A DNA stretch of 46,473 nucleotides, counting the filler, from Jimgerdemannia flammicorona (Eukaryota), in the NCBI GenBank assembly GCA_003990765.1. It is 2 parts of 2 records of this genome, joined end to end, with 100 filler letters (N's around TTAATTAATTAA, not from the genome) between each part and the next. Parts side by side here need not be neighbours in the genome. Positions count along the whole stretch, not along the records: positions 1 to 23,190 come from RBNJ01001140.1; positions 23,291 to 46,473 come from RBNJ01001141.1. One strand, 5' to 3'. Both the position numbers and the translations under genes were made by a program. Below, piece after piece: positions 6,111-39,109 of this stretch. The notes under the pieces are model-generated. The model saw nothing but the letters and a program-made list of their open reading frames with translations. It was not told where the DNA came from and did not search any database. The number at the start of each line of letters is the position of its first letter. Positions within the stretch are counted from its first letter, which is position 1.

Positions 6111-6113
6111 ACT

Positions 6114-12639: not shown

Positions 12640-13951
12640 TTGTAAGTGCACAATCTCCAAGCCACTGAAATCACACATCACCCTCTGAACAAGCCACCAA
12701 AATCACATGCGACCTTTGAATAAATCTGGAAATCACCTGCTCAGTCACAAAGCTGAGTCAAACTGAAGTCACAGTATATAAAGCTGAGTCAATATGAAGT
12801 CACAGAATACAAGATTTACACAAACAGAATCTTATCAATCAGGACCAAACACATATATACTGAGCACCGAGATGCATTGAATAGAGAACCAAAACAAATA
12901 ACAACCATAACTTCTGAACATATACAAACATGACCACTGAGATCTACAACTGCATCCATTATAAGCACACAACCTCCAAGCTACCAAAATCACATGTCAT
13001 CCTCAGAACCAATTTGGAAACCACATATGAGACTATAAAACAAGTTACTGAAGAGATAATCTGGTTACACAAAATATGCCAGCAAGCATGAGAATCCACT
13101 GCCAAGACACAAGAATACTAGAAGAAGTACTACAACCATAAGACTAACTCTGAACCACTATAACTAGTTTGGTGTACTATACTATTACAAAAGGAAACCA
13201 GAAGTACCAAACTCAAACTGAGACAAGAAGAACTTTATCTTATCTATCAAGGGTTCATGAACTGCACTTATTAAACTCAAGACCAAGATATACTGTAACT
13301 ATACAAGACCTCATTACTTAGCAGAAGCAAAATGCATTTGAACAACTCTATTTGCTCTATCTGTGTCACCTCTATTGGAGAGTGACAGATGCTTTATCTG
13401 AACTCAAGAAAGCTGACATCATCGAAATCAATCTCAAGCCATCCACATGATAGATATTATTACTAAAAATTACCTTGGATTACAGAAAATATTATTTCCA
13501 AGAGATTCAAACCCCCAGCTGCGACATTGGGAGCCCTTGCCCTAGACAAGAATGGCCAGTTCTCACAAATGTGCCAGCAAGCTAAAAAAAAAGAGAACCA
13601 AGACCTGTTATCCTTATACAACCACTGTCACTAAGAATAGTTATAATTTTGCAAGAGACAGAAGTAATGATATCTTTGAAACTAATGACATCAGAAGTCA
13701 GAAAACTGCTCAGACTTTGCCAGTGATGATGTCATCAATAGTGATGTCATCAAAGACTAACCAGACAGTATCTAAACCTATAAATAGTTTAGCAGTCATA
13801 GTATAGTTAGATTAGCCTTGTACAATGTAACTGTGAACTGACTCAGCAGTCAGACGATCTCTTGACATATCAGATCACACTTGTACTACATGACTGCATT
13901 CCAACTCAGCAAGGCACTAAGTGCTACATCCATATTTAGCATAGTCTAGAT

Positions 13952-14239
13952 TAGTGCTCCCAATGAATTGAATTGAATCAAAGGTCCAATTTGATTTGAA
14001 GTTTGATTCAAACCTTAATTTTCAAAATATAATAACTTGACGAAAACTCATCTAAATTTAATATATTTTAGCTTGTTAGATTCACCGTATTAATGTAATT
14101 CTAACAAGCTAACGTACGTTAGATTTGGATGAGTTTATGCTGAGTTATTGCATTTTGAAAATTAGGGTTTGAATCAGACCCTCAATTTAATTTGACTTTT
14201 GATTCAATTCAAATTAATTCGACTCGTTTGGGAGCACTA
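13952..14239. mobile_element. Non-autonomous hAT-type MITE, fold-back structure
   Basis: TIRs TAGTGCTCCC/GGGAGCACTA with long imperfect inverted arms. 8-bp TSD GTCTAGAT/GTCCAGAT. The empty site is visible near 17195-17210. Confidence 0.88.
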
Positions 14240-14369
14240 GTCCAGATAGCCCCTCACTAGTATGTATAAATACCCCCTCCCCTAGACCTCAGAATCTCAG
14301 ACTTGAACAGATCCAAATACTCAAGAATACTTCTGAATACTTCCTCACAATATCTCTTTACATAACTAC

Positions 14370-15559
14370 TTTTTTTTTTGTTTTAATGGACTCATGTCCC
14401 ATGGAATTTTATTGGAAGAGAACCTAGACTATATAGGCCAAATCTCTCCCCCACTGCCCACCAAGCACTGCTCCCCCATTAACCTAGGCTAGCTATTGTC
14501 CAGCAGCTCGACCATGCAAGGTACAGCAGGGCCTATGTTAGCCTGCACCTCATTCTGTGCACCATGCTCTCCCTACTACCAGGGGAAACCCAACTATATA
14601 CCAACAACTGAAAGCACATGCCTGAGAATCCAATGTATGTACAAGGCCATGCCCGAGCTAAATAGAATAGCCCCTGCCACCTCAAAGAGAATGACAGGTA
14701 AAGAAAAACCCTCATCAAAACATAATATGGTAGGTAGGGCCTGGTTCTTCCAGTTGAGGTAAGTAAAGGACTTACATGTGAGGCAGGAGAAAGCCCCCAA
14801 TACTCCACTACTCAAGCCTATAGGCCTCGATTACATTGTCATGTTAGCTCCCGATTCCAGTTAAGTGCAGCCAAGACACCTGAAATAGGTAGTCTCGGGC
14901 CCCCCAACCCCCCCTGATAACTGGAGCCCAACCCTGCTGAGTGCCAAAAGAAGCCGAGAGTGATACCTACTACCTAACTGCACCACACCAATCAAAAGGC
15001 CCCACCAAAGCAGCATCTGCCCTAGCCCTGATGACCACCCCCAGCCTGGCACTCTACTGGTTCACCATTATCACCCTTCCTTCTATCTATGATGGCCATC
15101 TCCCCTCCCATCCCGACAATACCCAAAAAGCAGTCACCTATGCCAGAACTGCACTCGCCAGGAAGCTCACCAAAGCTAGAGGGCCCCACCATAGACACCA
15201 AAGACCTGCAGGTAACCTATACTGAGCACTTAACACCCAAGGTCAGCCAACTCCCTATATAGCCCAAGACACACTGAGATAATACCTTGTTGGTGATGGC
15301 AAAAAGAAGAAGGCACCACACCAAAACAGGTATACCTCAGATGCAGCTAAAGGCACCAGAATCTGCAAAAAAGTGGAGGAAGTACTAATCTGATACTGAT
15401 AAAGGGGCAACTCAATACCATTGCCCTCCTCCTACTATATCTCTGCAGGTACAGCAAACTAACCCAAGGTAGAGGGGGCAATATTAGGGGAAAGGGGACT
15501 TGGAAGGTCACCTACCAAATCTTGTGACCAGTAAGGTAGTAGAGAAAGGAGCATATCAC
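14370..15559 (-). mobile_element. Poly(A)-tailed retroposed insert (truncated or non-autonomous non-LTR element)
   Basis: Poly(T) at 14370-14384. TSD of about 14 bp, CTTTACATAACTAC/CTTTATACAACTAC. Absent from the LTR copy near 17310. Confidence 0.8.
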
Positions 15560-15970
15560 CTTTATACAACTACTCCTAGTATAGCAATATCATGAATAGC
15601 AAATAAATCTATTTAATAACCCACAAACCACTCTTAAGTAAATCTGCCCCCTGTTAGGTCCCACTCCTAACCCTGTTATAAAATTTCCTAATTGAGTATT
15701 GTCTGCAGCAATACGCTGATTCAACTAAGCTGGTCTTAGTTTCTTGAACTTCCTGAAATATGGAAAATTCTGAACATCCAGAACTAATCCAAAAAAGGAC
15801 TTTGGTTGAGACATCAACCTGATCTTAAAATCAATAAGCATAGAGGATGTACTCCATATGAAATTGATCTTAACCAAAAGAAAATAGTCTTCCAGAATAT
15901 CCAGAACTTCTAGAAAACCCTTTCAGAACTACATAACAGTTACCCTAAAAGGCAACTCTCTTACATCCAT

Positions 15971-17030
15971 GCTGACATTTGGAATGCCATTGTCAATTGA
16001 GCTACACCCCCTCTACCCCTCATGAATATCCATAGTATCTACTTTTGTAGAAGCCTGATGAAATGCCCTGAACATGCTTAGTGAGGCCCACCGAATCGGA
16101 CAAATCTCAAGCTACTACCAAATTGGCTGCCTCCTGGAAGACATGGTTGAACACCACCATGACACAGACATTATTCAGATGTCTCAACATCAGAAACTTA
16201 TTGCCTGCAAATACTGAGAACTCTTCTACAAGTATAATACCTTTATTCTCTGCCTCTGAGTTACTACCACTGAAATGATTGCTACCCTATCCTATAGTCA
16301 AATTAATGACATAATACAAGAACTCAACCATAAGTATCTTGAGTATATCCAGACTACAGACAGAACCTTCCCACACCCTGACAACCATATCCTGCAAATG
16401 CCTCAAGTCAGATACACTATGAAGGATGTCTATGATATAATTCGGTTCAATAAAGATGAAGCAGAAGACAATGATCCCTCTGATACCAATATGACCTCCA
16501 GCCAAGAATCTCTACCAACCCTGATCACTCTGCCAATCTTGCCAATGAACTTACAACAGTTCATAACCATCTATGAGACCTATTGAGACAATGACCACTG
16601 GCATGAATACCAATTCACATTTACCCCAGATTACTTCAACTACAATGAAGAGACCAGAGAATACAACCTATACCTCCAGACAACCCTCAAGATTGAGTCA
16701 ACCACTCCACCACCTGAGTACAAGTAATATGAACCACAGCCACTAGCTTACTACAATCCTGTGACTCATAGTGCTATAACCTATAGAAGGTACGCAGACA
16801 GTGAATCCGATGAAAGTGAAAACAATACACCCCTACTTCACCCACCAACACCTTATCTAGCATATGAGATAGATGATGCTATTCTATAGGATGGAGATGA
16901 AGTTCTGATGTATTATTACCTCAGTGAATAAGGAGAAGTGATCTGCGAACTACTTTTCCTAGATGACTACTTCATCAGAGATGATATCATTGATAGTGAT
17001 GTCATCAAAGACTACCCAGATAGTGCCTAA
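15971..17030 (+). pseudogene. LTR-internal ORF of Gypsy-1 (first 10 codons at 12930-12959), unknown protein
   Basis: One frame reads from about 16040 to 17030, broken only by scattered stops compatible with C>T decay. It includes ORF 16275..16586. The N-terminus MTTEIYNCIH|ADIWNAIV is split by the solo LTR. Confidence 0.75.
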
Positions 17031-17713
17031 AACTATAAATAGCTTAGCAGTCATAGTATAGTTAGATTAGTCTTATACAATATGACTGTGAACTAACTCA
17101 GCAGTCAGATGATCTCTTGACATATCAGATCACACTTGTACTATATAACTGAATTCTAACTCAACAAGGTACTAAGTACTACATCTATATTTAGCATAGT
17201 TCAGATAGCCCCTCACTAGTATAAATACCCCCTCCCCCAGACCTCAGAATCTCAGACTTAAAGATCCAGACACCCAAGAACACTTCTGAATACTTCTCCA
17301 CAATATCCCTTCACACAACTACTCCTAGTATAGCAATATCATAAATAGCGAATAAACCTATTTAATAACCCACAAACCACTCTTAAGTAAATCTGCTCCT
17401 CATTAGGTCCCACTTCTAACCCCATCACGAAATTTCCTAATTGTGTATTGTCTGCAGCGATATGCCAATTCAACTAAGCTGGTCTTAGTTTCTTGAACTT
17501 CCTGAAATATGGAAAATCCTGAACATCCAGAACTAGTCCAAAAAAGGACTTTGGTTGAGATGTCAACTCGATCTTGAAATCAATAAGCATAGAGGATATA
17601 CTCCAATGAAATTGATCTTGACCATAAGAAAACAGTCTTCCAGAATATCCAGAACTTCCAGAAAACCCTTCCAGAACTATATAACAGTTACCCTAAAAAG
17701 CAACCCTCTTACA

Positions 17714-20167
17714 AAAACTGCTCTATCCATCAGTTTCAGGCCTTGATGAGCCTGTCATCTATTATGAGTATAATGACTATTGTGTCCAAGCTCTCCTCAA
17801 AGATGACAGTACCATAGTGGTCATGTGGTTGGAATAGAATGGTTATGTTGGCTGCAAATGAGACCCTGAAACCATAGATAAGATTGTACCAGACTCTGCC
17901 ACTATCCTTTCAGGTTGGGCTCTTCTTTTCTAAGATATAAACCATTACTGGAGTAATATTGTTGTCTGTGTATATGGGCAGAGAAATATTATACTCAATA
18001 TATCCTAATGTGATACAAGTGTATGGTTGAGTGAACCCTTGGTCCAGGACCTCACACTGCCAGGCTGTACTAGTGGATGCCTGTTCTTGGTCCAGCCCCA
18101 GGAGCCCTGGCTTAGAAATCTGCCAAAATAGATGGTATTTAGTCAGTGCTTTTTTGCATATAGGGGGGCAGAAACCCCCCAGGTCACAGAAACCCCCCAA
18201 GCTATAGCACCAAAAAAGCAGAGCTCCTCATCTCATATGGCATGCTAAATTGTGCCAAGTATGTATATACAGCTGTACTGAGATCACCACCAAGCTGGTC
18301 TGCTGTATGCTTTATTAGTCTACTCAAAGAACCCCAGATTATAGCTACCATTGCCACACAGACCATATTATGCTCATATGTAGTTTGCTCTTCAATAGCA
18401 CTTTTAAAGTTCTGATAGAGATATAGAATCTTGTGCATCTCTAGAATTATATCAAAAAAGAGTATGTTGGTAGAGAAGAGTGATTATCTGGGGAGGAGAA
18501 AAAAAAAAAGTGAGACAAGTGCAGGGGATTTCAGAACTCCAGAACCCATTCTTCACCAGTATTGCAGTATACTCAATTTCCATCCAAACCCCCTCTCTTT
18601 GCTTTTTTCACTCTCTCTTTCCTGCCACCTAGTATTTGATATAATTCTCACAAACCTCATTGATGTGGCAGCAAAGCTCATCACTATAGAGGTTCTTTAC
18701 CACTATCACAACTACCTCTCTATGATCATTAATAATGATATAGTTCTTTTTATCATTGGTTACTCCTGCTGGCCAATAGACCTCTTGGTCAAGAATGATT
18801 TACTCTGATTCAAATGTAGACCCCCAAACCTTGATTATGATGCTAGTACTGCTCATACTGAACATCTTGTCCTCAAATTTCTCTATTTGATCAGATACTA
18901 AACATGGTTGAACTTAGATAACTTTGAACTCTCCTTTCTAATAGAACTGAGCTCTGATCTGAGGGGCTAAGATAAGTATACAGGCAGGTTGTATACAGAC
19001 AGGTTGTGTGCAGATGGATTACATACAGATGAATTATATATAGATAGATTACATACAGACAGGTTGCATATAGATAGATTGTATGCAGATGGGTTGTGTG
19101 TGAGTATCATGTGAGTGTTTTTTAGGGAAGATCACATAAAAATGAAGTTAAATAAAACACAGAGATGGGTATTTTAGAAAAAGAGCATAAGTGAGTAAGT
19201 GAGTAAGTTGCATACTGACAAGTTGCATACTGATGAGTTGCATGAGTTACACAAGATTACTCATGAAGGCTTACTTCTATTCCTTTTGAGACCTCTGCCA
19301 TACAATATATTGACTCAACAGCTCAGCCACCAAAGGCATGCCTCACAATGTCTGCCAGCCTTTCTTTATCTTTACCAGATATTGTGAATAAAGTCAGCAA
19401 ATCTCACTATAGAGCTGTGGACCCTAAGAAAAGTAGGAGATAAATTGAATTATGTTGGGAGAAACAAGTGATGGCAGAATGAGCAACCTACATCTACTAT
19501 TGGCTACTCCAAAAAGGCTGCTATATATATAGCTGTGAGATCTGTAAATTCCAAGATCTGAAGGACTACCATAAGTTATCATCAGAATTCTCCCTTATCT
19601 CTGCTATTGCCATTACTATCACCATCACCACTGTCATCACCACTGCCACCACCATCATCACTACTGTTGCTACTTTGGCTCTCAATGAGCAGCTTGTATG
19701 CTACCCATATGAGAAAGAATCTAACATTGTCAGCAGAGAGTGTGTTTCCACCTCTCTCTTGATAATCATTGCAGGGTAAAAAAATGAATAGACTAGACCA
19801 ATGTATGATTAAGAACTGCTGTTTTATTTACTCATGATGTGGCAGAAAAGAAAAAGAATAAAGAAAAAGAACAAAGAAAGAACAAAAGGAAAGAGAAAAC
19901 AAAAAGAAAGAGTGATGTCACTCAAAGTAAAGCAGGAAATAAAAACAGAGCAAAAATAAATAAAAGAAAGAGTGATGTCACTAAAGATTTCAATCTGGAT
20001 AAATCAATCTAGATGGATCAATCTGGATGAATCAATCTGGATCAATCTAGATCAATCTAGATTAATTCAGATCAGATCATGAGACCAATCTAAGTTAATT
20101 TAAATCTATTATATGATAAATCTGAATTGAATTGAATCTAGATGAACTTCATCTATTCAGAGCACTA
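17714..20167 (-). mobile_element. Probable degenerate hAT DNA transposon remnant
   Basis: Ends in GAGCACTA (same TIR family as the MITE) with GATCAATCT-type subterminal repeats at 19985-20160. Only weak transposase-like fragments (IWGSL, ILEKKSPT). Confidence 0.45.
18976..19100. repeat. Degenerate tandem repeat, about 18-bp unit
   Basis: Repeated (A/G)CAGA(C/T)(A/G)G(G/A)TT(G/A)(C/T)AT-like units. Confidence 0.6.
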
Positions 20168-23100
20168 ATTGGGAGATTTCAGAAGGCACTCAGAGGATTT
20201 TAGAAGGTAGAGAAAGAGGGCCCAGTGGGAGCCATGAGAGTGAATCCAGAACCAGTATCAAAGTGAATGAAGGATATGTAGAAGAGTATATATAAGGGAG
20301 ATGAATAAATAATGTAACTGAAAATGCATCAGCCATTTATTGCTATGTAAAAATACAGTCCTTATATATAAAATATAATATCCCAAAAGAGAGGATGCAC
20401 CACAACTTGGGACAAACCGAATTAGGAACCATATGATCACTGGAGATAAGCAGAGATAAAGAGAGAGCCAATCCTAGTTGCAGAATAAAAATCACAAATA
20501 AATACAAACAAAACAAATCCAAATTGAGATTAAAAAACATCTGCAGACTTCAGAGGAGTGAGCATGAGTGAGGGGTGAGGTCAAAATAGAGTGAGCTACA
20601 GCAAGCCTAAGTGAAGCAAGGAGCTGAAGGTAGCAGAGAAGAGTAGAGTAAGGCTGAGACCCTGGAGTGAGCATGAGACCCTAGAGGGGGCAAGGATGTT
20701 TTTTAATCCTCTTTGGCAGAGCTGGAGATACCAGAAGGTGATGAAAATGCAAAATGAGAGCAATGGATTAAAGAAGAAACAGAAGGAAGATATAAATGAG
20801 CAATCAGAGGGTATTGAGAGAGATATAAAAGTCTATGGCATGAAAGAGAAGAGTGCAGGATAGTGTCAGGACATTGTGTAACCCAGTAAGTACAATTGAA
20901 TAGTATGATAAGAATTAGGGGTGAGAATGAAGAGGGGGTACAGAGAGGGTAAGGGGAGAGAGAGAGAAGGAAAGGGAGATAAAAGAGAGAGAGGAGAGAA
21001 GAGTGAACAACAGACTATTCAACAGAAGCAAGCAGATTATGAATGATAGAAATAGGGTAGGCACAATGATAGACCACAAAGTTGCTAAGGACCCAAACAG
21101 CAGACACCAAGTCAGAATAATGAGAGCAGTAAAGTGCAAGATGACAAACCTCACTATAAATATATTCAAGAAGAGTATAATAAGAATGATTGGAATAGAA
21201 GTTAGAGAACTGTTGTGAATGAGGAAAATGAGAATAAACAATAGTTCATAAGAGGGAAAGTGAAATAAAAAGATCTAAAAAGAGAATACTGGTCATACTA
21301 TACACCTAAGTAATGGAATGATAGAGAGAGTAGATACTATAGAATATACTAGGAATATCAATATCAGCAATAGTAAGGATGATAAAGTTATCAATGTATC
21401 AGTAAAAGAAGATATCCCTAGCCCTGAATACAATGGAAAGAGGTAAAGAAGGATTATATATCATATGAAGTTCATAGGCCAGGTCAACAAGATTGGTAAG
21501 AGTGGGGGTATAATTCATTTCCATAGCAATATCAGAAGTCTGGTGAAAGGAGCCAAGGACCAACTCAAAATAGTTGGAGCTATAGACAAGGAGCATAAGC
21601 TCAATGATAGAAGTCAACAAAACTGAGTAGTTCAAAGGGAAGAGAATAGAACCCAAGAAGCAAAGACAATCATTGATCTCATCAAAACAAATAGCAGTGT
21701 AGAAGAAAGAGAAATCACCAGAGGCCAAATGGGAAAAACATTGAACAGGCACAATAGTAGAGCAGAGAAGGGCAAGTTCCTGAGTATCATGAAGAATCAT
21801 ATACTCAGGCCCAAGGTAGTGTTGAAGGAAGAGCCATCTAAGAGAGGAAGAAGTGGAATAACCACTTTGAGATCTCAGTGGTGGATGAGCTATAGGTAGT
21901 CATAATGAGATACCAGGCCAAAGTAGGCTTGTAGACTTTAGAAAGGGTATTAAAAACTAGAAGATGAATATCTGGAGAGAACAAAGAGTCCTGGAAGAAG
22001 TTAAAAATGGGGTTCACAAAAGAAGAATCCAAAAGTGATCTAGCATGAGCTAGAGAAACCCAAAGAAGAGTAAGAACCTCATTCAATCCAAGAGCACTTA
22101 GCTTGTAAGCTATGGCTTGAAGAAGGGCAGAAAGGCCATCAAGGTAGAGTGACTTAGAAATAAGTACAAAACTCTAATTCTTATTAGTAACTGTAAGCAA
22201 ATGCAAAGACAATTGCTTGACTGATTTAAGTGCAGTATGTATGGCATAGTCCAAAACTAAGCAAGAGCAAGTATCTGGGAATAGACAGTGAGTAAGTCAT
22301 ATCAAGAAATATGCAATGTGAAGAGACATTGGGAGAGGGGACTCAATTGCTAGGAATATAATAGTGAGAGGGCATCTTACTATGATCTTCAAAAAAGATG
22401 GCAAGGTCAAGAGCATGATGAAAATATGTAAGATGAGCTAGATTGGTAAAGAAGAATTGTGAGGAAGTTATAGGAAAAATGAAGCAAGGATCCAAGAATA
22501 AGGTAAAGACTTAAAGGAGAGAAAGTAGGTAGTTAGCCAAAGAAAAAGGAGGAGATAAAAGTATTCCAAGAGAAGAATAAATCTAAAAGTTCAGGACAAG
22601 CAACTGGGAAAGGTGAAGGGAGGATAACATGAGGAATCACTCAGAGTATACCAGAAGTGACAATAGAATCTAAGAAGAGATAGAGACACTGGGGGAGAAC
22701 CATGCCAGAAGGAAGTTTAAGAGTAGGAGGCCTTCTCCTTCTCTCTGACTTTTTTTGAAGATGGCAAGCCTGATAAGTGAGAGCACACCCAATCAGAGTA
22801 TCAGATCTTGTAGCTATAGACTTTCATGCAGCTCTTATATTTAGGGGCATGGGGAGAGGAGGCAGAGGAGGAGCCAGTAGAGGAGGCAGAAGGAGAGTGA
22901 GCAGTCAAAGGGGCAGCAGCATGAGGGACACCACCATGGGGGCAGACAGACTTGGCCAGGTACCAGTAGGCACAGTGGAGATGACTGGAGCAGACAGCAC
23001 AAGGCCAAGCCCCAATGGGGTAAGAACCAAGTTGATGGCCACACTTGGGGACAGAGAGAATAGAGAAGGAAACCTTGGCAGGAGAGGGGGACTGAGAAGA

Positions 23101-23190
23101 GACTGACAAAGTTTGGTTGGACTTAGTGAGGGTCTTAGTAGGAGCCTTGGCTGTGGCAGCAGCAAAGGAATGAACCTCAGTGCAGGTGGT
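20168..23190 (-). mobile_element. Penelope-like element RT, heavily decayed; boundaries approximate
   Basis: ORF 21399..21800 has LASGDFSFFYTAI, NYFE..HQTSDIAMEMNYTPTLTNL (decayed GxAMGT..APxLANL) and FY*YIDN (RYIDD). Downstream is a thumb-like FYSNH..IYSEVCHLALYCS. Confidence 0.75.
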
Positions 23191-23290
23191 NNNNNNNNNN
23201 NNNNNNNNNNNNNNNNNNNNNNNNNNNNNNNNNNTTAATTAATTAANNNNNNNNNNNNNNNNNNNNNNNNNNNNNNNNNNNNNNNNNNNN
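23191..23290. other. Assembly gap with artificial six-frame stop linker
   Basis: 100-nt N block containing TTAATTAATTAA at 23235-23246. Confidence 0.95.
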
Positions 23291-23646: not shown

Positions 23647-24448
23647 TATAAATGCACAACCTCTAAGTCACTGAAATCACTCAGAACAAATTTGAAGTTG
23701 AGTCAAACCAATGTTACAAATTATAAAGCTGAGTTAAACTAAAGTCACAGATTATGAAGCTGAGTTAACTCAAAGTTACAGAACATAAGACTTATAAAAA
23801 TAGAATCTTACAAATTAAGATTGAAGATATATATATCAGATATATAGTACATCAAAATAGAGAATCATAAATAATAATGACAAACTCTCAAATATATATT
23901 CAGCTATGACCACTGAAGTTTATAACTATATCTGTGCTAATATTTGAAAAGCTATTATAAACTAGACCACAACACCTCTGCCTCTTATGAATATCCATAG
24001 CCTAGCACTCCTCTACTTTGTAGAAGTTTGATAAAATACTCCAAATATACATAGTGAGATTTACATAATTAGACAAATCTCAAGCTACTATCAAATTAAC
24101 TGCCTCCTTGAAGATATAGTTAACTAACACTATAATATAAATATTACTAAAATGTCTTAACACCAGAAACTCATCATATATAAATACTGGGAACTCTTTT
24201 ACAAGTATAGTATCTTTATTCTCTATCTCTGAGTTACTATTACTGAAATGGTTACCACTCTAACCTATGGACAAATTGATGACATAGTGCAAGAAATCAA
24301 CCAGGAATATATTGAGTATGTTTGAACTACTGACAGGCCCTTCTTGTATCCAGATGACTACATCTTACAAATGTCCTAAGTTGGATACACTATGAAGGAT
24401 ATCTATGATATAATTTAGTTTAATAATAATGAAATGAAGACAATGACC
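23647..24448 (+). repeat. 5' part of another Gypsy-1-family LTR including the start of the LTR ORF (ATG at 23906)
   Basis: Begins TATAAATGCACAACC. Colinear with 12641-12959 plus 15971-16475. Truncated at about 24448. Confidence 0.85.
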
Positions 24449-25811: not shown

Positions 25812-25848
25812 ACGGTGGGTTTCCCCCAGCACGGTGGGCGTATCTAGT
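25812..25848 (+). mobile_element. Possible Helitron 3' terminus
   Basis: Imperfect GC hairpin CCCAGCACGGTGGG followed 5 nt later by CTAG|T (25844-25848). Confidence 0.4.
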
Positions 25849-27128: not shown

Positions 27129-27165
<37 letters not shown>

Positions 27166-28467: not shown

Positions 28468-28578
28468 CTACATATATACAAATATATACATGTAAATATA
28501 TATATATAAATATACATATATATATATATATAAATACATATACATATAAAAACATACATATAAATATACAAATATATA
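28468..28578. repeat. (TA)n-rich microsatellite
   Basis: Imperfect TA/CA dinucleotide run. Confidence 0.8.
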
Positions 28579-29063
28579 TGTCAACAGATCAGCCTTTAAC
28601 AGTTTATAGTACTGATAATGCTTCAAGTCAAATATCCTCAATAGTTTCACACTTTCCATATAATCCTTATTCCCAAATCAAGTAATATTGTGCTAAGTCC
28701 AGAGATAATATTATTTGTAATTATTACAGATAAAAAATTTAAAAATGAAAATAATTTGTAATATAATTGATACTTATTTTTAACATACATATATTGTTTC
28801 TACCAAATCATTTATACTATACAGCCAGAAGTTCAAAATACTTGATGGGTTAACTTTAAACATATATTGATATATAAAAGACAAATACTCTAACAAAATT
28901 AAAAAGAATACAAAAACAAATAAAATTAATATCTAAGCTATAGTGGGTATATTTATCTAATTGCCCAATTATTTCTATATCAATAACCCCATTTAATCAA
29001 AAATATTTAGCCATATTCTTTAGCAGAATTTCGAAATTGACTTATTTGCTAGATTGTATATAT

Positions 29064-30638
29064 TATAATGGTGACCCCAGAATGATAACATCAGTACAGA
29101 AGACAGTCTTTCCTTATAAGCCACCAGATCAGAGCACAAGAAGATCATATGGTATACAAGATGAGTAATTATGACCAACTGTGAGTCATTGTGACCACAG
29201 TATAGACATCTTGAGGAATATAATAGAAGGATCAAGAAATTGCAGTAACAGCAACTCAACAAGACCCACTAATCCCAAAATAGCTCAAAGACTTACTATA
29301 AATGAAATGTCTGCTATCTGCCAAACCTTAAGATCAAGGAATCACCAAGGCACCTCAGTCGAAGAAAGGATGTTCCAAGATATCAGAAGAGCCATGAGGA
29401 CCTGCACAAGAAAGACTCCTAGTATCAATCTGGGTACTGCAGATCCTTATCACTTTATTCTCTATTGCCATAAAATGGAAACAAGGATCACTATTGCTAC
29501 CAAATGCCTCCAAATATAACATGAGTACAAAATAGGAAACCTTCTCTACCAGGAGTTCCCACAGGCCAGCTCTCAAGAGTTACAAGATGCCACTCCCATA
29601 AATATATATGAAGCAAGAATAGCTAAGAAAATCTATCAGATCTTCAGACATGTATCATAGTCAATCTCCAACTTGGAGTATGTTAGAGTCTCAGACTTCA
29701 GAGACCTATCAGTCTACCATATCAATGCACTAGAAGTCAGGGTGGCTACAGAAACCCAGTCCACTATTACCCTCAATAGTGATGAAGTAGAAGACTTCTG
29801 ACATCCCATCCTCCAGGACAACCCAGACCAATTTCTGCAAGGATTGATCTCAGTATTCCAAGTATCTAGGTTAGACCTCTCCAAGACCTCACATTTGTCC
29901 CCTATTTCATGGAAGAGAATCTCATAGACTGGAGAGCCCCAGACCTCCTTGTTCCCATCACTGCTGAATATGATAATATCATTGGTGATGACATCATCCT
30001 GCATGATATATGCAAAATATATGATCTATACAATGACGACAATAATGAGATGGATGAGATATTTGCAGATCTCATCTCTTTTGAAGACATCCTGACCTCT
30101 AATGAGGATGAAGCCCCTATGATCTTGAACATTCTGCTCTAAGTCCCTTGGTTACACTGAATTATACCAGCACTCTTTTCCTGTGTAATAGCTATTCCAC
30201 CATTGGCATTTTGATATAACTCAGAATTATTTCAGCACTGTTTTCCTGTATCACTGAAATTATACCAGCATTCTAAACCTATGCAACCATCAGTGCCAAC
30301 ACTAGAACTTAGCAGTTTTCTCTGTCCTGGCATTTTGTTTTAGTTATTGGAATTTATATTTAGCTTTATATCTTAGCAACTATTGAATTATATTTTGTAT
30401 AAATACCTCTCTTATTTCCTCTAAAATAAAAGTCAGTCTACTCAGTGCAATACACACAATCTCTTACAAGCAATCTAAGAGATAATAAGATAGTTTAAAG
30501 ATAAGAAGTTTGAGGACTATAAGATCTTGGGAAGGCACTCCAATAAGAACTTGCTTATAACAAACTTGAGTTAGTCTAAGAGATATACCTTGAAGAGAAT
30601 CTGGTATATTTGAAGAACTCAGCGACCACTACATGACA
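29064..30638 (+). repeat. Gypsy-2 5' LTR (1575 bp)
   Basis: Direct repeat of 36341-37432 plus 38621-39109. Termini T(G>A)TAA...GACA. TATA-like TATAAATA at about 30398. Confidence 0.93.
29307..30142 (+). pseudogene. LTR-internal ORF of Gypsy-2 (about 280 codons reconstructed), unknown protein
   Basis: MSAICQ...ILNILL* reconstructed from both LTR copies. The 7-bp deletion near 29860 and the 1-bp deletion near 37190 are each complemented by the other copy. Confidence 0.78.
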
Positions 30639-30641
30639 ACT

Positions 30642-30658
30642 TGGTACCCATTGGCTGG
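30642..30658 (+). promoter_or_regulatory. Primer-binding site-like motif
   Basis: TGGTACCCATTGGCTGG, 3 nt after the LTR end. The cognate tRNA was not identified. Confidence 0.55.
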
Positions 30659-30668
30659 TGATTTAAGA

Positions 30669-32100
30669 TGAATCCCTCACTTTTAAGCTGAAAAATGAAC
30701 AACCACTACAACAACTATCCTGACTACAAGAGTCACCCCTGCAAGAATTCAAGACAAGATGGAATTGTACCCCCTCACATTCTATAGATATACTACTGAA
30801 GATTTAATCCTGATCTTTATTGAAGACTTTGAACAATTTGCAGCTATATGAGCTCTTGGTGTAGATGCACAATTGGCCCTTCTATCAGTCAGCCTCAGAG
30901 AACCTGCCAGAGACAAGTTCAATGCAGTTACTATTACTGATAATAGTGCAGCCAAACTTACCAACATAAAGGCCTTCCTCAGAACAACATACTATACTGA
31001 AGAGATTAAGCAAGCTCTCAAGGATCAACTCAATACTATCTGCCAGAGACTTAGTAAAGACCCCAACTCATTCTATATCCAAATCTGCCACCAGATTGTC
31101 TTGGCTAGCTATGATGACCATCTCAAGGAACAAATAGCTGATTCAATCTTCCTCAAAGGAGTTCACCCTGAAATCACCCTAGCAATTTGGTCTACCCCAG
31201 CTGCACTGACCCTTGATCAGAAAGTGGTCTTTGGACAGAGATATTGGACTGCCAGACACCCTGCTGAACACTCAATAGAGAAAATAACTGGCATCAAGAT
31301 AGAGCTATCAAAGCCAACCAGTATCATATCTACTATAGTTGTAAACAGATAAATATCTCCACCTATCCCCAAGGCAGCCAAAGCTGACCCAGTGGAGGAA
31401 CTCACCAAGCAGTTTGCTGAGATGACTGCATACCTTGATGATGTTGTTAGAGCAGTCTAAAGTACCAATAGGAGACCAGTGTAGAGATTTGCAGCTGCTA
31501 CAGAAGAATACAATATCACATGCTTTAGATATAGAGAAGAAAGCCACTATGCAAAGAATTGCATGACTGAAACAAGACATAAAGTCCAACTAAGCAATGC
31601 TAGCAGAACCAGAGAACAAACCAATGCAGTAGTCATTGAGGAGATTGGTGACACTGATGATGAAGAATACTATGAGGAGCTTGAATTCTACCCTACTACT
31701 AAAGGTACCAGAACCTGGTTCAAGCTCTATAATAAGAAGAGCAACAGCAAGCCAGTTAGAAGACTAAAGAAGACCCCAGCTGTCACTATCCAAAGCAAGA
31801 CCCGACCCAAGGAGATTGATCAAGACATGGAGTTAGAGGAAGCTGCCCACCAAATTATTGAAGGCACTACTCCAGTCTCAGGAGAAAGCAAAAGCAAGAA
31901 GGAACAGAAGCTGCACAAGACCAAGATCCACCAGTATGATATTTACAAAGATCTTAAGAAACAGAAGGTTAATGCTACTTTTGGACAGCTAGCTGAAGTC
32001 TCTGCCTTCAGATAGCAATTAAGAGTAGGACTTGCAACTACTGCCAAGAATCAAGAGTACAAGATTGTAGAAGCTCACAATGCATAAAAAGAATCTGAAA
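30669..32100 (+). pseudogene. gag: Gypsy-2 gag (boundaries approximate)
   Basis: ORF 30873..31352 is retrotransposon-gag-like. Decayed knuckle CFRYREESHYAKNC at about 31521-31562. Confidence 0.8.
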
Positions 32101-32139
32101 ACTCAGGCAAAGAATCTGAAGACCAGTGTAAGACATCAG

Positions 32140-35100
32140 CCTATACCCTATGTCAGATCAAAGATTGTATCTTTAATGCCATCATTGATACTGGTGCTGG
32201 AGGATACCTCATGAGCAAGAAGACAATTGACTGCCTAGGCTGGAATATTGAAGAGTCTACTAAGATGGTCTATGTTACAGCAGATAGTATATGAGCTACC
32301 CCCCTTGGCAAAATCCAAGAAGTCCCTATCAAGATAGGAAGAGCTACTATCCTAGTAGATGTGATTGTTATAAGTGCCACCAACTATAACATCCTCATTA
32401 GCAACCAATGGCTTCACAAGGCCAAGGCCATCATTGACCTCAATGCCCAGAAGATGCAGATCAACTATAGAGGAAAATAGGTATGAGTCTCTATTAATGT
32501 CCATAAAGGAGTTCTACCAGACATAGAGGAAGGAGATAAGGTGGACACAGAAGTCTTCATACACTTGGTGAACAAGAATAAGAACAAGAACAAGACACTC
32601 AAACTCACAGATGAGCAGTAGTACAACAAGATCATCGATGGCTATGCCCCTCAAGGAAGATATCTCCATAGTACTAGAATATACTGCTCTAAACACCTGA
32701 ATGACTACTGGTCCTATATCAGTGAAGTCAGGAAAATCCATGAACAGAAACATGAGTAAGAAGCCACCAAAGCAAAAAGGAAAGCTGAAGAAGATGACCA
32801 GCCCCCAGAGCTTCAAGCTAACAGTAATTATGAGGAGGAATAAGAACCAGATATCACCCTCAAGGTCAAGAAGTTCTACCCCAAAGCCAAGATCCCAGAA
32901 TATAAGACTGAAGGAGCCATAGGAATAGACCTTGCCAGCATCTAAGATATTACTCTCAAACCACAGACCACTACCCTACTTGGCACTGGAATTGAAGTCA
33001 AGTTGCCAGAGAACTATACCAGAATTATCAAGGCCAGGAGCAGTCTGGCCAAAAGTGAAATCTCAGTTGAAGGAGGAGTAATTGACCCTGATTATACTGG
33101 CAAGATCTTCCTCATAGTTAGGAATCACAACCCCACCACCCCATTTGAAGTCAAGAAGTATGACAGGATTGGCCAGATGCTGATCTACAAAATCAAGAAG
33201 CCCAAGATCATGGAAGCCATCAAACTTATCAAGACCAAGAGAGGAGAACAAGGCTTTAGATCTACTGGAGGAGGAGCCTATGCTACTACCAAGATTACCA
33301 AACTTAAGCATAAGAAAGACAAGGACCAGAATAAGTACACATATACCATTGGAGAAAACTTTCCCCTGGAAGAACAACTTCTCAAGATTCTGCACCAGAA
33401 TGAAGAAGTACTTGCTACAGACTTCAGAGATATCTACAATCAAGAACCCAGTACTACTACAAAGTTGACACTAGTGATACCAAGCCCATCTACCAGAAAG
33501 CCAGACCTATACCACCTGTCTACAGAGAATGGCTGCAAGCAGAACTCAAGAAAATGAAAGAAGCCAGAATTATCAAGCAAGCTATCAGTCTCTAGGCTTC
33601 ACCCATTATCCTTACCTTAAAGAAAAGAAGTAAGCCTGGAGAGTTTGCTCCAAGACTCTGTATTGACTACAGGAAGCTCAATGCAATTACCAAGAAGGAT
33701 AGGCAGTCTTTGCCAAATATCTAAGAAATCCTTACCACTCTTGGAAGCAAAGCCAAAAACTATACCACCTTAGATCTGTTCTCAGGCTTCCATCAGATTG
33801 GTCTCACTCAAGATGCCAGTGAGAAATCAGCCTTCATTATACCTGATGCCACCTATATCTACCTGCAAATGCCATTTGGAATATGCAATGCTCCAGTAAG
33901 TTTTCAGCAAATAATAAACAGAGTCTTCAGTAATGAGATTGAAAAATGGCTCTTTATCTATGTTGATGATGTGATTATCTTCAGCAACACTGTATGGGAA
34001 CATGTCAACCATATATAGCTAGCTCTCAAGAAGCTCAAGGAGTATGGCCTCTACATAAAGCTTAAGAAATATAAGTTTGTAGCTCAGGAAATTACCTACC
34101 TAGGACACCTTATCAATTAGACCAGAATCCACACAGACCTTATGAAGATTGAGGCTGTTGTAGTCTACCTGAGACCCAGAACAATCACAGAAGTCCATGC
34201 CTTCCTTGGACTGGTCAGCTACTACAGAAGATTTATCAAAGAATACTCCAATATTGCAGTACCTATCTATGAGCTACTGAAGAAGGAAACCAAATTCAAA
34301 TGGACCAAGAAATGCCAAGAAATCTTCAATATACTCAAGACCAGGTTGACTCAAGCACCTATCCTCAGAAGATCAGATTGGAACCTAGAGTTCATTCTGT
34401 AGACAGATGTAAGTACTATAGAACTTAGAGCAGTCCTAGCTCAGAAGAAAGATAGATATGAATATATCATCTCCTATACAAGCCAAGATACCTGTAGAGC
34501 AGAACAGAACTATAAGTTATGCAAGCTTGAATGCTTAGCAGTAGTTTGGGCTGTAGACAAGTTCCACTACTACCTAGCTGAGAAATACTTTACTATTTAA
34601 ACAGATCATTCTGCTTTTGCCTGACTATTCCACACTCTGAACTCTAAAGGAATATATGTCAGATAGATCTACAGGCTACAAGAGTATGACTGTACTGTCA
34701 AGCACTGCTCAGGAAGAACCAACACCAATACTGATGCACTCTCAAGGATACCCCAAAACACCCCCATCAAGACTATTCAATATAAATAAGAAGCTATACT
34801 ATAGATTAATCAGCTATCTTGAGCAGTAGAAGATGCCCAACCACCTCAAATCCTGGACAATCACCATCATCAACTGGACTTAGAAACAGTTTGAACTAGA
34901 TGACACCATACTCAGAAAAAGAGGAAAGCTCATAATACCTGAACACAAGAAGTATTAAGTAATGAAGAAAGTATATGAACAAGGATACCTAGAAGGAACC
35001 AACACATATGACAAGGCAAAAAGAACTATATGATGGTCCAAGATGGAAGAAGATCTGTGCCAATTTGTCAAAGGGTGTGATAAGTGCCAAAAACAAAAAT

Positions 35101-35970
35101 AAGATCAGCAAGACCAGACACCTGAGTCATCAAGAATTGAGCCTATCTCCTTCCACTATATTGCAATGGATATCATTGGGCCACTACTAGTAACTCTATC
35201 AGGAAACTGCTATTTTATAGTTATTGTAGACCTCTTTACCAAATGGATAGAAGCAGGATCATTACAAGAAGCCAATGTCCTCTCTATAGCCAACTTCCTG
35301 TACCAAGAAATCATCTGCTACTACAAGACACTGAAATAAATCACAAAGACTGTGGAACAGAATTTGTCAATAGATTCCACAAGATAATATATCAGAAATA
35401 CAAGATTTAGCACATCAAGACCACCATGTACCACCCTCAAGGAAATGGACAGACAGAGAGAACCAATAAGACTCTTAAGAACATCCTGGTGAAGATCTCA
35501 GACATATATGAGAATTGGGACAACTACCTCCCAACTGCCCTCTCTGTTCTATGAGACATATGGTCATAGAGCACACACTTTACCTTAAGAGAACTACTCT
35601 TCAGAGAAGAAGATTCTGATGGAACCTCAGCTACAAATCTAGATCTAACTTAGAGATAGGTTGATGCAGAAATCCAGAGGCTATACCAAATCAGGAAGAA
35701 GGCTGAAGATTATATTGTCAAGTTACAAGCACTGATAAAAAAGAATGCAGAAAAGAATCACAAGACTCTAGAACCCATCCAAATTAGAGAAAAGGTCCTA
35801 CTGTATTGAAATATGGTAGAGGCCTCATGGTCATAAAAACTGGAGTCCAAATGGGAAGAACCCTTCTATGTACAAGATATCAAGAGAACTACCTTCTGGC
35901 TTAGAAAAATCTCAGAGACCATACTGCCTACTATAGTATATAGAACAGACTCAAGAAGTACTATGAATCT
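32140..35970 (+). pseudogene. pol: Gypsy-2 pol: protease, dUTPase, RT, RNase H, integrase
   Basis: AIIDTGAG at about 32180. LCIDYRKLN, MPFGICNAP, YVDD (33959-33970), FLGLVSYYRRFI, TDHSA, MDIIGPL, YHPQGNGQTERTN. GPF-like motif near 35855. Confidence 0.95.
32853..33272 (+). pseudogene. Trimeric dUTPase domain between protease and RT
   Basis: AIGIDL, ARSSLAK, GGVIDPDYTGKI, DRIGQML and RGEQGFRSTG, corresponding to motifs I-V. Confidence 0.95.
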
Positions 35971-36340
35971 ATACAAGAGAAGCAAAATGTGATGACTACC
36001 TATGAGGTTCTAGTTTGCGAATTGTAACAGCATGTCCTGTGACCAGCAGGCTATCTGTCTGGACCATTCTCTAAGGGATATGGCACCAGCAACTACTCAT
36101 CCATGAGACTTTCAAAGCTAGAGAAGTTCAAACCATCAACTGATTGATCAAGATCAGAATCAGGCCCTTGCTCTATATGAAGGGAGTGACTCTTCACCAT
36201 CATGCCAAAATACATAGGGAAGATATCAGCCCATAAATACCACTTTTCAACCCCTTTTTAGAGGTTATGGGATCAGTAAATTTTTCAGGACTGGACTAAT
36301 GAATAAGGATGTTCAAGAAGATCCTTATTCAGAAGAAAGA

Positions 36341-39109
36341 TGTAACAGTGACCTCAGAATGATAACATTAGCACAGGAGACAGCCTTTCCTTACAAGCCA
36401 CCAGATTGGAGCACAAGAAGATCATATGGCATACAAGACAAGCAATTATGACCAACTGTGAGTCATTGTGACCACAGTATAGATATCTTGAGGAATATAA
36501 AAGAAGGATCAAGGAACTGCAGTAGCAGCAACTCAACAAGACCCACCAATCCCAAAATAGCTCAAAGACTTTTCATAAATGAAATATCTGCTGCCCACCA
36601 AACCTCAAGATCAAGGAACCACTAAGGCACCTCAGTTGAAGAAAGAATGTTCCAAGACATCAGAAGAGCTATGAGGACTCACATAAGAAAAACTCCTAGT
36701 GTCAACCTGGGTACTGCAGATCCTTATCACTTTATCCTCTACCACTGTGAAATGGAAATAAGGATCACCATTGCTACCAAATACCTCCAAATGTAGCAGA
36801 AGTACAAAATAGGAAACCTCCTCTGCCAGGAGTTCCCACAGGCCAGCCCTTAAGAGTTACAAGATACCACTTCCATAGATATACATGAAGCAAAGACAGC
36901 TAAGAAGATCCATCAGATCTTCAGGTATGCACCATAATTGATCTCCAACTTAGAGTATATTAGAGTTTCAGACTTCAGAGATCTGTCAGCTTACTATATC
37001 AATGCACTAGAAGCCAGAGTGGCTACAGAAGCCCAGTCTACTGTCACTCTCAATAGTGATGAAGTAGAAGACTTCTAGCATCCCATCCTCTAGGATAACC
37101 CAGACCAATTCCTGCAAGGATTGATCTCAGTATTCTAAGGCTCAAGCATCCAGGTTAGACCTCCTCAAGACCCCACATTTGTCTCCTATTTGTGGAAGAG
37201 AATCTCATAGACTGGAGAACCTCAGACCTTCTTGTTTCCACTGCCACTGAATGTGATGACATCATTGATAATGACATTATCCTGTATGATATATATGAAA
37301 TACATGATCTATGTGATGATGACAATGATGAGATGAATAAGACATTTGCAGATCTCATCTTCTTTGAAGACATTCTGACCTCTGATAAGAATGAAGCCCC
37401 TATGGTCTTGAACATTCTGCTCTAAGTTCCTTTTTTTTTTTTTTTTTTCTACACTCATTTATTCTGAACATAGTTACATAGCAAACAGCGGGAAAACATC
37501 CCCCGGATTACCTGACAAGAAAGTAAGTGGGGTCAGGCTCTGAAAAGAGTAGCCTCGGGCTACCCAACACCTAACCTTAGCAAAGCCAAGGTGGCCAGGG
37601 CCTGGTTCTCTCTGCCCTGAGCTGCTTCCACCCCCCCCTCACTGCCAATAACAATGCACCACCAAGGCCACAACCGGCCCCCTCATACAAATAATATATA
37701 CAATGAAGAGAAATGAAATGGCATGCAGGCCTGATAAACCCCAACCATGAGTTACTCCACCCCACCTTGGCTGCCCAGCGCCAACCTACATACTTAACAA
37801 ATGGGTCTGCCATCCGACCGCCACTCTCTCTGAGTCAGAAGTCACCGTCTGGCTTGTGACACCAGCACCTCAAGTGATACCGCCGTCATACCTGGTCTTA
37901 CCCTAAAGGGCCACTGGATGTGACCCCAGTACCTCGAGTACCCCTGCAGCATACACCCGGCCTACCGGCTCCCCCTTCCCCAAAGTGGTGAAGTAGTCAC
38001 CTGCTGATTTCCTTTCTGATCATCACACCATCGCTGGCCAATCACCTGGCCCGATCATCACTGCCATCTTGAATCACACCATCCCGTATCTACCAATCAC
38101 CCATCACTATCACTACATGTATCGAGATCACCTCATCCACCTTAGCCAATCATCAGCTGCACCTTCCAAAATCCTCCGAGCCCCTTCTGAAATCACCCGG
38201 TATACCTCTACACCTTGAGGATGCAGTAAAGGTCCCCCTCCAGAGTGAAGAAAGCCTAAGAGCCTGACCCACATCTCCCAGCCCGCCAGAGCATGCCAGT
38301 GAATCGGATGCTCACCACGAAGCTGGTCATGTCGCCGGATGTAAGACTCCACATCTCCTTGAGAACTTGCCAGTAGCTCCCAGAGCCTGCCTCGTACCGT
38401 CTGGCCCATGAAATGATGAAACCCTTGAATTCTTGAAAACTGTAGCCTTGAGGTTGGGGCAACTCGACACCATTGGACTCCTCTTCTCTTGCCGCTTCTG
38501 GCATACCCAACCTCAGGGCACTGATGGCCCTCCTTCTCCTGCACCATAGGGATCCAATTTCCACTCGGACCTTTTGACTGGTATGGTTCAAGAGAAAGAA
38601 GTCTCTGCTCTAAGTTTCTTGGTTATACTGAATAATACTAGCACTCTTTTCCTGTGTAACAGTTGTTCCACCACTAATATTTTGATGTAACTCAGAATTA
38701 TTTCAGCACTATTTTTCTGTATTACTGAAATTATATCAGCATCTTGAACCTATGTAACCATCAGTATTGATACTGGAACTTAGCAGTTTTTCCTATCCTG
38801 GAATTTTGTTTTAGTTATTGAAATTTATATTTAGCTTTATATCTTAGCAATTATTGAATTATATTTTATATAAAAAGCTTTCTTATTTTCTCTGAAATAA
38901 AAGTCAGTCTACTCAGTGCAATACACACAATCTCTTGCAAGCAATCTAAGAGATAACAAGACAGTTTAAAGATAAGAAGTTTGAGGACTATAAGACCTTG
39001 GGAAGGCACTCCAATAAGAACTTGCTTATAACAAACTTGAGTTAGTCTAAGAGATACATCTTGAAGAGAATCTGATATATTTGAAGGACTCAGTGACCAC
39101 TATGTAACA
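36341..39109 (+). repeat. Gypsy-2 3' LTR, interrupted by an insert; carries the second copy of the LTR ORF (36584-37425)
   Basis: Termini TGTAAC...GTAACA. Colinear with the 5' LTR. Confidence 0.93.
37433..38603 (-). mobile_element. Poly(A)-tailed retroposed insert without recognisable RT
   Basis: Poly(T) at 37431-37448. TSD of about 17 bp, TCTGCTCTAAGTTCCTT/TCTGCTCTAAGTTTCTT. Absent from the 5' LTR. Retains more CpG than its host. Confidence 0.85.

Follow-up and report, generated by a model that had tools for sequence, protein, structure and literature searches.

Long terminal repeats (LTRs) of retrotransposons are usually treated as non-coding control regions and are masked in annotation, and solo LTRs pass for dead remnants. 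A stretch of DNA from Jimgerdemannia flammicorona (GCA_003990765.1) raises the question of whether an LTR can also be the home of a gene. The window, meaning the whole stretch of 46,473 nt that was analysed, joins RBNJ01001140.1 (positions 1-23,190) and RBNJ01001141.1 (23,291-46,473). It contains two decayed Ty3/Gypsy elements, called Gypsy-1 and Gypsy-2 here, and the LTRs of both hold a long open reading frame (ORF) in the sense direction. An earlier note on this DNA had proposed that the two ORFs encode homologous proteins and represent a conserved accessory gene carried by the LTR. The reading favoured here is that the LTR-borne accessory gene is real and conserved, and that the N-terminal domains of its products are homologous in the two families. 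A probability of roughly 0.6 is given to this reading, and the figure does not extend to the mechanism proposed below for the expression and role of the gene.

In both families, the ORF occupies the same part of the LTR. It begins 288 bp into the LTR in Gypsy-1 and 243 bp into the LTR in Gypsy-2, ends with a TAA codon (17028-17030 in Gypsy-1, 30140-30142 and 37423-37425 in the two copies of Gypsy-2) and stops 190-255 bp upstream of a TATAAATA box, which is followed by AATAAA in Gypsy-2. Each of the two LTRs has a discrete sense protein-coding gene, all of which falls within the interval from the LTR start to the main TATA box. Because of this position, the ORFs are located in the U3 region. 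A gene in U3 is copied to both LTRs in each round of reverse transcription and is left behind in solo LTRs, and its copy in the 5' LTR lies upstream of the element's own transcript start. The layout is that of the sag gene of mouse mammary tumour virus (MMTV); the 5' LTR of Gypsy-1 is truncated, but an LTR fragment from a diverged Gypsy-1 subfamily (23649-24456) has the ORF at the same place.

The Gypsy-1 ORF is interrupted after 10 codons (codon 10/11) by a solo LTR of 3006 bp and resumes at 15971, after a TCCAT duplication. The earlier note had joined the two pieces across this insertion, and the join is right, as the stop-free relative P0010 reads straight through it; another stop-free relative, P0005, is placed by tblastn at 16275-17024. 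The first Gypsy-2 copy is matched by the hidden Markov model (HMM) of its own family with 257 bits and is likewise mapped by tblastn with stop-free relatives. In both Gypsy-2 copies, the frameshift leads from frame f0 to frame f2. Other parts of the original description also hold. The ORF coordinates agree with the translations, the LTRs, put at about 2.06 and 1.58 kb, were measured at 2066 and 1568 bp, the ORFs do stop upstream of the TATA-like box, and the two LTR families show no DNA similarity (the best blastn match is 23 bp, E 0.026). The idea that solo LTRs would spread the gene agrees with its U3 position, but the one related solo LTR in the window, at 12960-15965, has kept no more than about 20 codons from the end of the ORF (a match to the tail of P0005 at 13716-13772). 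ORF-less LTR variants therefore exist, and not every LTR of the group has the gene, which counts against the separate promoter proposed below.

The ORF copies in the window are dead. They have 7-11 stops in their best frame, and the pattern of their decay is that of cytosine methylation and deamination at CpG. Among 1567 aligned bases of the Gypsy-2 LTR pair, 179 differ by transition and 7 by transversion. CpG observed/expected was measured in five repeat-derived stretches and is 0.00-0.18 there; in 24457-29063 it is 0.67. This type of decay accounts for the stops in the ORFs falling where stop-free relatives have R, Q or W. The double stop common to both Gypsy-1 ORF copies corresponds to R-W in P0010.

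Natural stop-free relatives were used in place of a reconstructed consensus or ancestral LTR. For the Gypsy-2 ORF (family 2), relatives without stops are P0001, P0002, P0003 and P0004, found in public protein sets with 68-80% identity. A family-2 profile run against 1.84 billion representatives (50% library) found five proteins in all, down to 28% identity, and a cluster look-up added the near-identical P0011. The members are named only "hypothetical protein". The family-2 protein family is real but small. The Gypsy-1 ORF (family 1) has the stop-free relatives P0005 (247 aa, C-terminal, 61% identity) and P0010 (N-terminal 128 aa, 79% identity), and the latter starts with MTTEIYN, the same as the Gypsy-1 copy in the window. 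In a metagenome scan, the family-2 alignment yielded one locus, L001, among 93 pattern matches, and the family-1 alignment yielded 35 pattern matches with no confirmed relatives. A search for sequencing runs that share the sequence listed four soil-metagenome DNA runs, with small shares (0.14, 0.05, 0.01 and 0.00), and no RNA run; this result has no bearing on expression.

L001 is an undecayed contig of 1535 bp, with CpG observed/expected of 0.5 and a complete ORF of 291 codons. Its ATG stands in an A-rich context, with in-frame stops 13 and 20 codons upstream. The start MPA/MPP is common to P0002, P0007, P0008 and L001, and the C-terminal end LNFLL/LNILL is conserved in most members. The GC content of the L001 ORF by codon position is 0.56/0.38/0.57. 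When L001 is compared with the two Gypsy-2 copies of the window, the differences at codon positions 1/2/3 number 92/55/108 and 96/62/114. The proportion of nonsynonymous differences (pN) is 0.40 and that of synonymous differences (pS) is 0.70-0.76; controls in shifted frames gave pN of 0.46-0.49 and pS of 0.39-0.55. The DNA of L001 and of the window LTR can be aligned only inside the ORF (L001 399-964, 59% identity), and neither flank matches. The codon-position differences and the restriction of DNA similarity to the ORF together point to selection on a protein. These alignments suggest that, over long divergence, the LTR ORF evolves as a protein-coding sequence would, and the LTR ORFs are very probably genes, not chance frames.

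Three considerations temper this conclusion. The codon test was performed on a protein-guided alignment, which favours amino-acid matches, and its pS is saturated. Gene calling supplied the public proteins, and open frames were thereby pre-selected. The two decayed family-1 copies differ near-evenly over the codon positions (transitions 37/29/44, transversions 7/8/12), as expected from decay after insertion. The codon pattern of family 2, with pN below pS, would fit the codon-level constraint that had been predicted, subject to the limits of that alignment; the decayed copies of family 1 show no bias. The claim that the LTR ORFs are real genes nevertheless stands, with stop-free relatives, a conserved start, a codon-position pattern and DNA conservation limited to the ORF in its favour.

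How such a gene might be expressed is a further question. A TATA(A/T)AAAG box is found 80-155 bp before the ATG in Gypsy-1, Gypsy-2 and L001. In L001 it is TATAAAAG at 296, 80 bp upstream of the ATG; in the 5' LTR of Gypsy-2, the equivalents of the candidate motifs are TGAGTCA at 29182 and a mutated box near 29219. The presence of the box in all three lineages favours a promoter of the gene's own in the first part of U3. It is tentatively proposed that the gene is transcribed from such a TATA-type promoter, situated within the initial 150-250 bp of U3. The transcript would end at the LTR's own polyadenylation site, and the LTR would be laid out as promoter 1, accessory gene, promoter 2, R and U5. 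Any LTR, even a solo one, would thereby amount to a small gene. The motifs themselves give reasons for caution, as TATA-like words are frequent by chance in AT-rich DNA and L001 is without TGAGTCA. The window LTRs also gave nothing convincing for a duplicated promoter module before both TATA boxes, and this candidate was rejected. A 12-base word, GTCAGGCGGAAC, occurs in L001 at 170-181 and 1481-1492, flanking the ORF (E 0.005), and has no counterpart in the window LTRs.

The alternative that survives best accepts the gene but not its promoter. The protein would be expressed in the manner of sag or nef, from 3' element transcripts, either by leader splicing or from a promoter at the end of pol, and no separate U3 promoter would exist. 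In a variant of this explanation, transcription of the element starts upstream of the ORF, which then lies in a very long R-U5 leader. Exactly like sag, the ORF does lie in U3 with a good TATAAATA box and AATAAA downstream of it, the copy in the 5' LTR would then be silent by default, and the upstream TATA and TGAGTCA motifs are weak, with TGAGTCA missing altogether from L001. This route has to contend with the box in L001, which precedes a well-placed ATG and has a similar counterpart in both window families. Moreover, no consistent splice acceptor was identified, and the two families are not alike in the first bases of their LTRs (TGTAAG in family 1, TGTAAC in family 2). It is a possible route, at odds clearly below even.

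The second part of the favoured reading concerns the kinship of the two proteins. The earlier note had aligned them by their hand translations, and the alignment now stands in part. With stop-free relatives, it is recovered over the N-terminal ~125 residues in exactly the register proposed, but decayed copies alone give no significant match. P0010 and P0007 match in BLASTP with E 6e-4, in an ungapped stretch of 50 residues, and hhalign with P0010 reaches E 0.044 across 125 columns. An HMM of seven family-2 proteins matches P0010 with 14.9 bits in a collinear alignment (HMM 19-140, P0010 residues 7-126). This score was equalled by none of 5000 shuffles and by 1 of 30000, and the reversed sequence scored -0.1. 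When a single-sequence model of P0010 was used, the score of P0007 was reached by 17 of 5000 shuffles and that of P0008 by 7 of 5000. MAFFT aligns P0010 with family 2 in the same register. When the P0010 HMM was run over all six frames of the window, the top matches beyond family 1 were the family-2 ORF frames, with Gypsy-2 copy 1 at E 0.0097 (HMM 3-109) and copy 2 next, and gag/pol gave nothing. The N-terminal ~125 residues of both proteins, which are predicted to be helical, are thus likely to share an origin, on statistics that range from borderline to good.

The opposing evidence is also considerable. For the decayed window translations, BLASTP gives E 0.47 with the best alignment in another register, and hhalign gives E 0.45, though in the register of the earlier note. 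Even with P0010, the hhalign probability is just 1.2%. P0010 shows no significant match to P0002 (BLASTP E 53; 510 of 5000 shuffles) or to P0009 (2093 of 5000), and the family-2 HMM misses the decayed family-1 copies in the window scan. The families are small and shallow, and mono-residue shuffles ignore helix periodicity. The C-terminal parts are not significantly similar (their score is reached by 1111 of 10000 shuffles), so homology beyond the N-terminus is not supported, and these parts are alike only in acidity. A common C-terminal motif, P-x-F-x-x-YF...ID, for which BLASTP gave a hint (E 0.11), was discarded as non-significant at the profile level.

Both ORFs could therefore be real but unrelated, with the N-terminal likeness due to chance or to the convergence of helical domains that were acquired separately. 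The mostly weak pairwise tests, the low hhalign probability and the unlike C-terminal parts are in keeping with this, as is the distance between the elements themselves, whose pol is only ~31% identical over reverse transcriptase (RT)-RNase H and whose dUTPase lies on opposite sides of the protease (PR). Such an explanation is nonetheless unlikely, because it leaves the profile match to a stop-free sequence, collinear over ~120 residues, to chance, together with a six-frame scan that picks out both family-2 copies in the right frame and an ORF of the same position, orientation, size class and build (helical front, acidic tail) in both LTRs. If the proteins are homologous, the pol identity and the different placement of dUTPase mean that the gene either dates far back in this group of elements or passed from one family to another.

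The stop-free relatives carry a net charge of -20 to -36. Their last 80 residues contain 24-28% D/E in five of the six proteins that reach the C-terminal part (17% in P0008), which bears out the Asp/Glu-rich C-terminal regions described before. A Pfam scan of P0001, P0002 and P0005 returned no family at E up to 1, a PDB profile search returned 0 sequences at E up to 10, and no sequence homology to Sag, Nef or other retroviral accessory proteins was found in these Pfam and PDB searches. AlphaFold2 (10 rows) predicts helices at 18-31, 47-83, 89-95, 100-113, 117-122, 128-132 and 136-149, with little structure past 215. A second AlphaFold model (P0010 and family-2 rows) has the same helix order, but it is not independent of the first, as its alignment mixes the families. 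A reading of the N-terminal basic stretch as similar to basic leucine zippers (bZIP) or to Rev was rejected since the stretch is not conserved across the family.

In general, the structural results count against assigning a function. The mean predicted local distance difference test (pLDDT) score is 50.6 in the first AlphaFold model (predicted template modelling score 0.43, low confidence) and 48.8 in the second, and the Atlas model of P0002 has a pLDDT of 0.35. The ESM Atlas look-alikes of P0002 reach a feature score of 0.83 at best with a structural template modelling (TM) score of at most 0.33, and none was usable. Against 48161 PDB representatives, the P0002 model had 0 chains at Z of at least 5; its best structural matches (Z up to 4.9) involve single long helices only, in a low-confidence model. 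The earlier suggestion of a transactivator or an anti-silencing factor thus gains nothing from structure, as nothing there links the protein to an activity. The product can be pictured as a near-neutral helical N-domain followed by a tail that is strongly acidic, probably disordered and has hydrophobic clusters at its end. It might act in trans on the expression of the element or on host control, as a transactivator-like adaptor, although this is conjectural. The same caution applies to the wider view that these ORFs could form a new family of self-contained U3 genes in (probably fungal) dUTPase-bearing Ty3/Gypsy elements, in which solo LTRs would stay expressed and the product would be an element-encoded regulator; this is doubtful as a whole.

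Another origin for the ORF would be transduction, that is, the capture of a piece of a host gene in an ancestral U3, with no role for the element. LTR retrotransposons are known to capture host sequence, and the protein is without a TE-like (transposable element) domain. However, no relative was found outside the small group (5 of 1.84 billion proteins, no Pfam match, no PDB match at E up to 10), and the gene remains open and alignable down to 28-45% identity, and yet the LTR DNA on either side no longer shows any similarity. An open gene between diverged flanks fits selection within the element lineage, and transduction is very improbable. Finally, it is hardly credible that the frames are mere by-products of young long LTRs that are open by chance, with cis-acting LTR DNA or RNA as the conserved entity, since, even if the public matches are gene calls on contigs of 0.8-4.8 kb that select open frames, confidence in the models is low and the decayed family-1 copies lack codon bias, it is only in the frame of the ORF that conservation is highest at the second codon position and lowest at the third, the GC periodicity is of the coding type, the ATG and the C-terminal end are conserved, and frames of 200-342 codons are open in lineages down to 28% identity.

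The gene thus favoured sits in a nest of retroelements, the features of which are collected in the table. LTR boundaries were determined by self-blastn, a more sensitive blastn and direct reading of the junctions, and Pfam domains were called on X-read-through frames in both elements.

Table. Positions of the LTR ORFs, of the elements that carry them and of candidate control motifs in the window (PBS, primer-binding site; PPT, polypurine tract; TSD, target-site duplication).
Feature	Position	Strand	Basis or remark
Gypsy-1 LTR ORF, ~365 codons	12930-12959 + 15971-17030	+	translation; ~10 stops and one frameshift
Diverged Gypsy-1 subfamily ORF, N-terminal half	23906-24448	+	P0010 HMM 152 bits
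Gypsy-2 LTR ORF copy 1, ~278 codons	29307-30142	+	7 stops in first frame; frameshift near 29861
Gypsy-2 LTR ORF copy 2	36584-37425	+	11 stops in first frame; frameshift near 37189; G2 HMM 282 bits
Candidate Gypsy-1 ORF promoter (weak): TGAGTCA 12754, 12785; TATATAAAG 12775	12754-12783	+	155 bp before ATG
Candidate Gypsy-2 ORF promoter (weak): TGAGTCA 36459; TATAAAAG 36496	36459-36502	+	88 bp before ORF start
Gypsy-1 5' LTR, truncated (last 345 bp left), PBS after	5767-6111	+	92% identity to 17371-17714
Gypsy-1 5' LTR tail end	CTTACA at 6111, then ACTTGGTAGC	+	sequence read
Gypsy-1 internal region, decayed	6112-12642	+	CCHC, dUTPase, PR, RT, RNase H, integrase, SH3, chromodomain
Gypsy-1 3' LTR, 2066 bp, split by solo LTR	12643-12959 + 15966-17714	+	start matches 23649 onward
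Gypsy-1 LTR main TATA box TATAAATA	17220-17227	+	190 bp downstream of ORF stop
Solo LTR of related subfamily, 3006 bp	12960-15965	+	starts TATAAGCACACAACC, ends CTCTCTTACA; TSD TCCAT
Truncated LTR, diverged Gypsy-1 subfamily	23649-24456	+	74-77% identity to Gypsy-1 LTR
Gypsy-2 5' LTR, 1568 bp	29064-30631	+	87-90% identity to 3' LTR; PBS after 30631
Gypsy-2 LTR main TATA box TATAAATA 30398-30405 and AATAAA 30424	30398-30431	+	255 bp past ORF stop
Gypsy-2 internal region, decayed	30632-36340	+	PR, dUTPase, RT, RNase H, integrase zinc domain
Gypsy-2 3' LTR, split by 1.17-kb insertion	36341-37432 + 38604-39102	+	PPT CAGAAGAAAGA before TGTAACAG

Both elements are Ty3/Gypsy retrotransposons with dUTPase. 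Their pol order is PR-RT-RNase H-integrase between two LTRs (Pfam), as in Ty3/Gypsy elements (Metaviridae). The LTR termini are TGTAAG...CTTACA in Gypsy-1 and TGTAAC...TAACA in Gypsy-2. A PBS-like ACTTGGTA directly follows 6111 and 30631, and purine tracts stand before 12643 and 36341, the first of them being the PPT AAGAAGGGGAGAG. The Pfam E-values for Gypsy-1 are 4e-24 for dUTPase, 2e-27 for RVT_1, 1e-25 for RT_RNaseH, 1e-15 for Integrase_H2C2 and 4.5e-11 for Chromo; those for Gypsy-2 are 7e-6 for RVP_2, 4.5e-26 for dUTPase, 3e-27 for RVT_1, 5e-26 for RT_RNaseH_2 and 3e-8 for Integrase_H2C2. The chromodomain, which marks chromoviruses, is thus matched in Gypsy-1. Gypsy-2 gave no Chromo match, but its integrase is badly decayed, and the rve core was undetected as well. 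In Gypsy-1, the dUTPase lies before the protease (CCHC at 8013, dUTPase at 8166-8543, PR at 8821-9105), and in Gypsy-2 it lies after it (PR at 32121-32462, dUTPase at 32883-33269); the two dUTPases are 32% identical. Judged from their sequences, Gypsy-1 and Gypsy-2 are two deeply separated families.

The solo LTR inside the 3' LTR of Gypsy-1 is flanked by the 5-bp duplication TCCAT at 12955-12959 and 15966-15970. Its last ~740 bp match the Gypsy-1 LTR (16976-17713) in three blocks, which are separated by two further insertions (13952-14232 and 14371-15552), and its first 760 bp are unrelated to that LTR. The insertion in the 3' LTR of Gypsy-2 (37433-38603, 1.17 kb) starts with poly-T, equal to a poly-A tail on the minus strand, and is flanked by the 12-bp duplication CTGCTCTAAGTT, which contains the stop codon of the ORF. 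It looks like a 5'-truncated non-LTR element, and a minus-strand frame of 164 codons inside it has no Pfam match.

At both ends of the window are long interspersed nuclear elements (LINEs) with apurinic/apyrimidinic endonuclease (APE) and RT domains. These LINE-type elements, at 1-5766 (-) and 39103-46473 (+), are inverted with respect to each other, with ~65% identity between 159-5364 and 45367-40274; both are very strongly skewed between the strands (GC skew ~0.5), and their CpG observed/expected is 0.01-0.18. The 5.5 kb at 17715-23190 have no Pfam match in six frames and a CpG observed/expected of 0.0. From ~19000 the plus strand of this stretch is purine-rich (GC skew +0.3, AT skew +0.3), and the stretch terminates at two N runs, 23191-23234 and 23247-23290. 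The sole stretch with near-normal CpG, 24457-29063 (observed/expected 0.67, as given above), contains a 29-bp tandem repeat array at ~26399-26801 and a very AT-rich part at 27001-29000 (23-24% GC). A frame of 146 codons at 24433-24870 has no Pfam match.

Accessory genes of LTR retroelements are known, and the LTR ORF protein family matched nothing described in the libraries searched. The sag gene of MMTV is a complete sense ORF in U3, upstream of the main promoter, and it is present in both LTRs and inherited via the 3' copy. Its product, Sag, is a membrane glycoprotein of a vertebrate retrovirus that acts on T cells. The accessible part of one report states that the 3' LTR of MMTV holds an ORF (PMC2118998). 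The likeness to the present case lies in a complete sense ORF inside the LTR, upstream of the main promoter and in both LTRs. The LTR ORF proteins themselves are unrelated in sequence to Sag, since P0001, P0002 and P0005 matched no family in the Pfam scan. Foamy virus tas/bel and lentiviral nef, from Retroviridae, are 3' accessory genes that run into U3 and overlap the LTR only partly. Tas is a transactivator with an acidic tail, expressed from an internal promoter, and, by analogy, may serve as a working model for the LTR ORF product, although Pfam, PDB and fold searches gave no sequence or fold relation between the LTR ORF proteins and the products of tas/bel or nef.

Extra genes are also found closer to the elements of the window. 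The aORFs of plant Ty3/Gypsy elements are extra genes of this kind. The brtn gene of Botrytis is presumably antisense, and the additional ORFs of Ty3/Gypsy elements are presumably internal, between gag-pol and the LTR. They are likewise extra genes of unknown function, and none is described, in the accessible parts of the sources, as lying wholly inside an LTR or as common to several families. The available text names brtn as the extra ORF of Botrytis BcGypsy1/Boty (10.1101/2021.04.13.439636), and the legend of Figure 3 in Novikova et al. 2010 lists an "add. ORF" in fungal Ty3/Gypsy elements (PMC2864245). The accessible part of the latter paper also reports that the position of dUTPase varies between Gypsy families (Postia placenta PosPlaTy3-3/-4/-5, Phanerochaete chrysosporium and Tuber melanosporum), as it does between Gypsy-1 and Gypsy-2, but it does not mention an LTR ORF. 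The occurrence of such elements in these fungi, taken with the soil-metagenome relatives and the methylation-type CpG decay, suggests a fungal host. The earlier note knew of no such protein family in Ty3/Gypsy LTRs, and full-text literature searches, whose scope did not include Repbase, subscription journals or the supplements of PMC2864245, agree with it, as no description was found in the parts of the literature covered, in Pfam or in PDB.

If a conserved gene is indeed carried in these LTRs, some Ty3/Gypsy lineages would have reached the layout of a "complex retrovirus" independently. Thousands of solo LTRs in a genome could then each be a potential gene, from which new host genes might arise. 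The product would be a candidate for an element-encoded factor that acts on transcription or on host silencing, in organisms that heavily methylate their repeats. Such a gene would be the counterpart, in an LTR retrotransposon, to the accessory genes of complex retroviruses.

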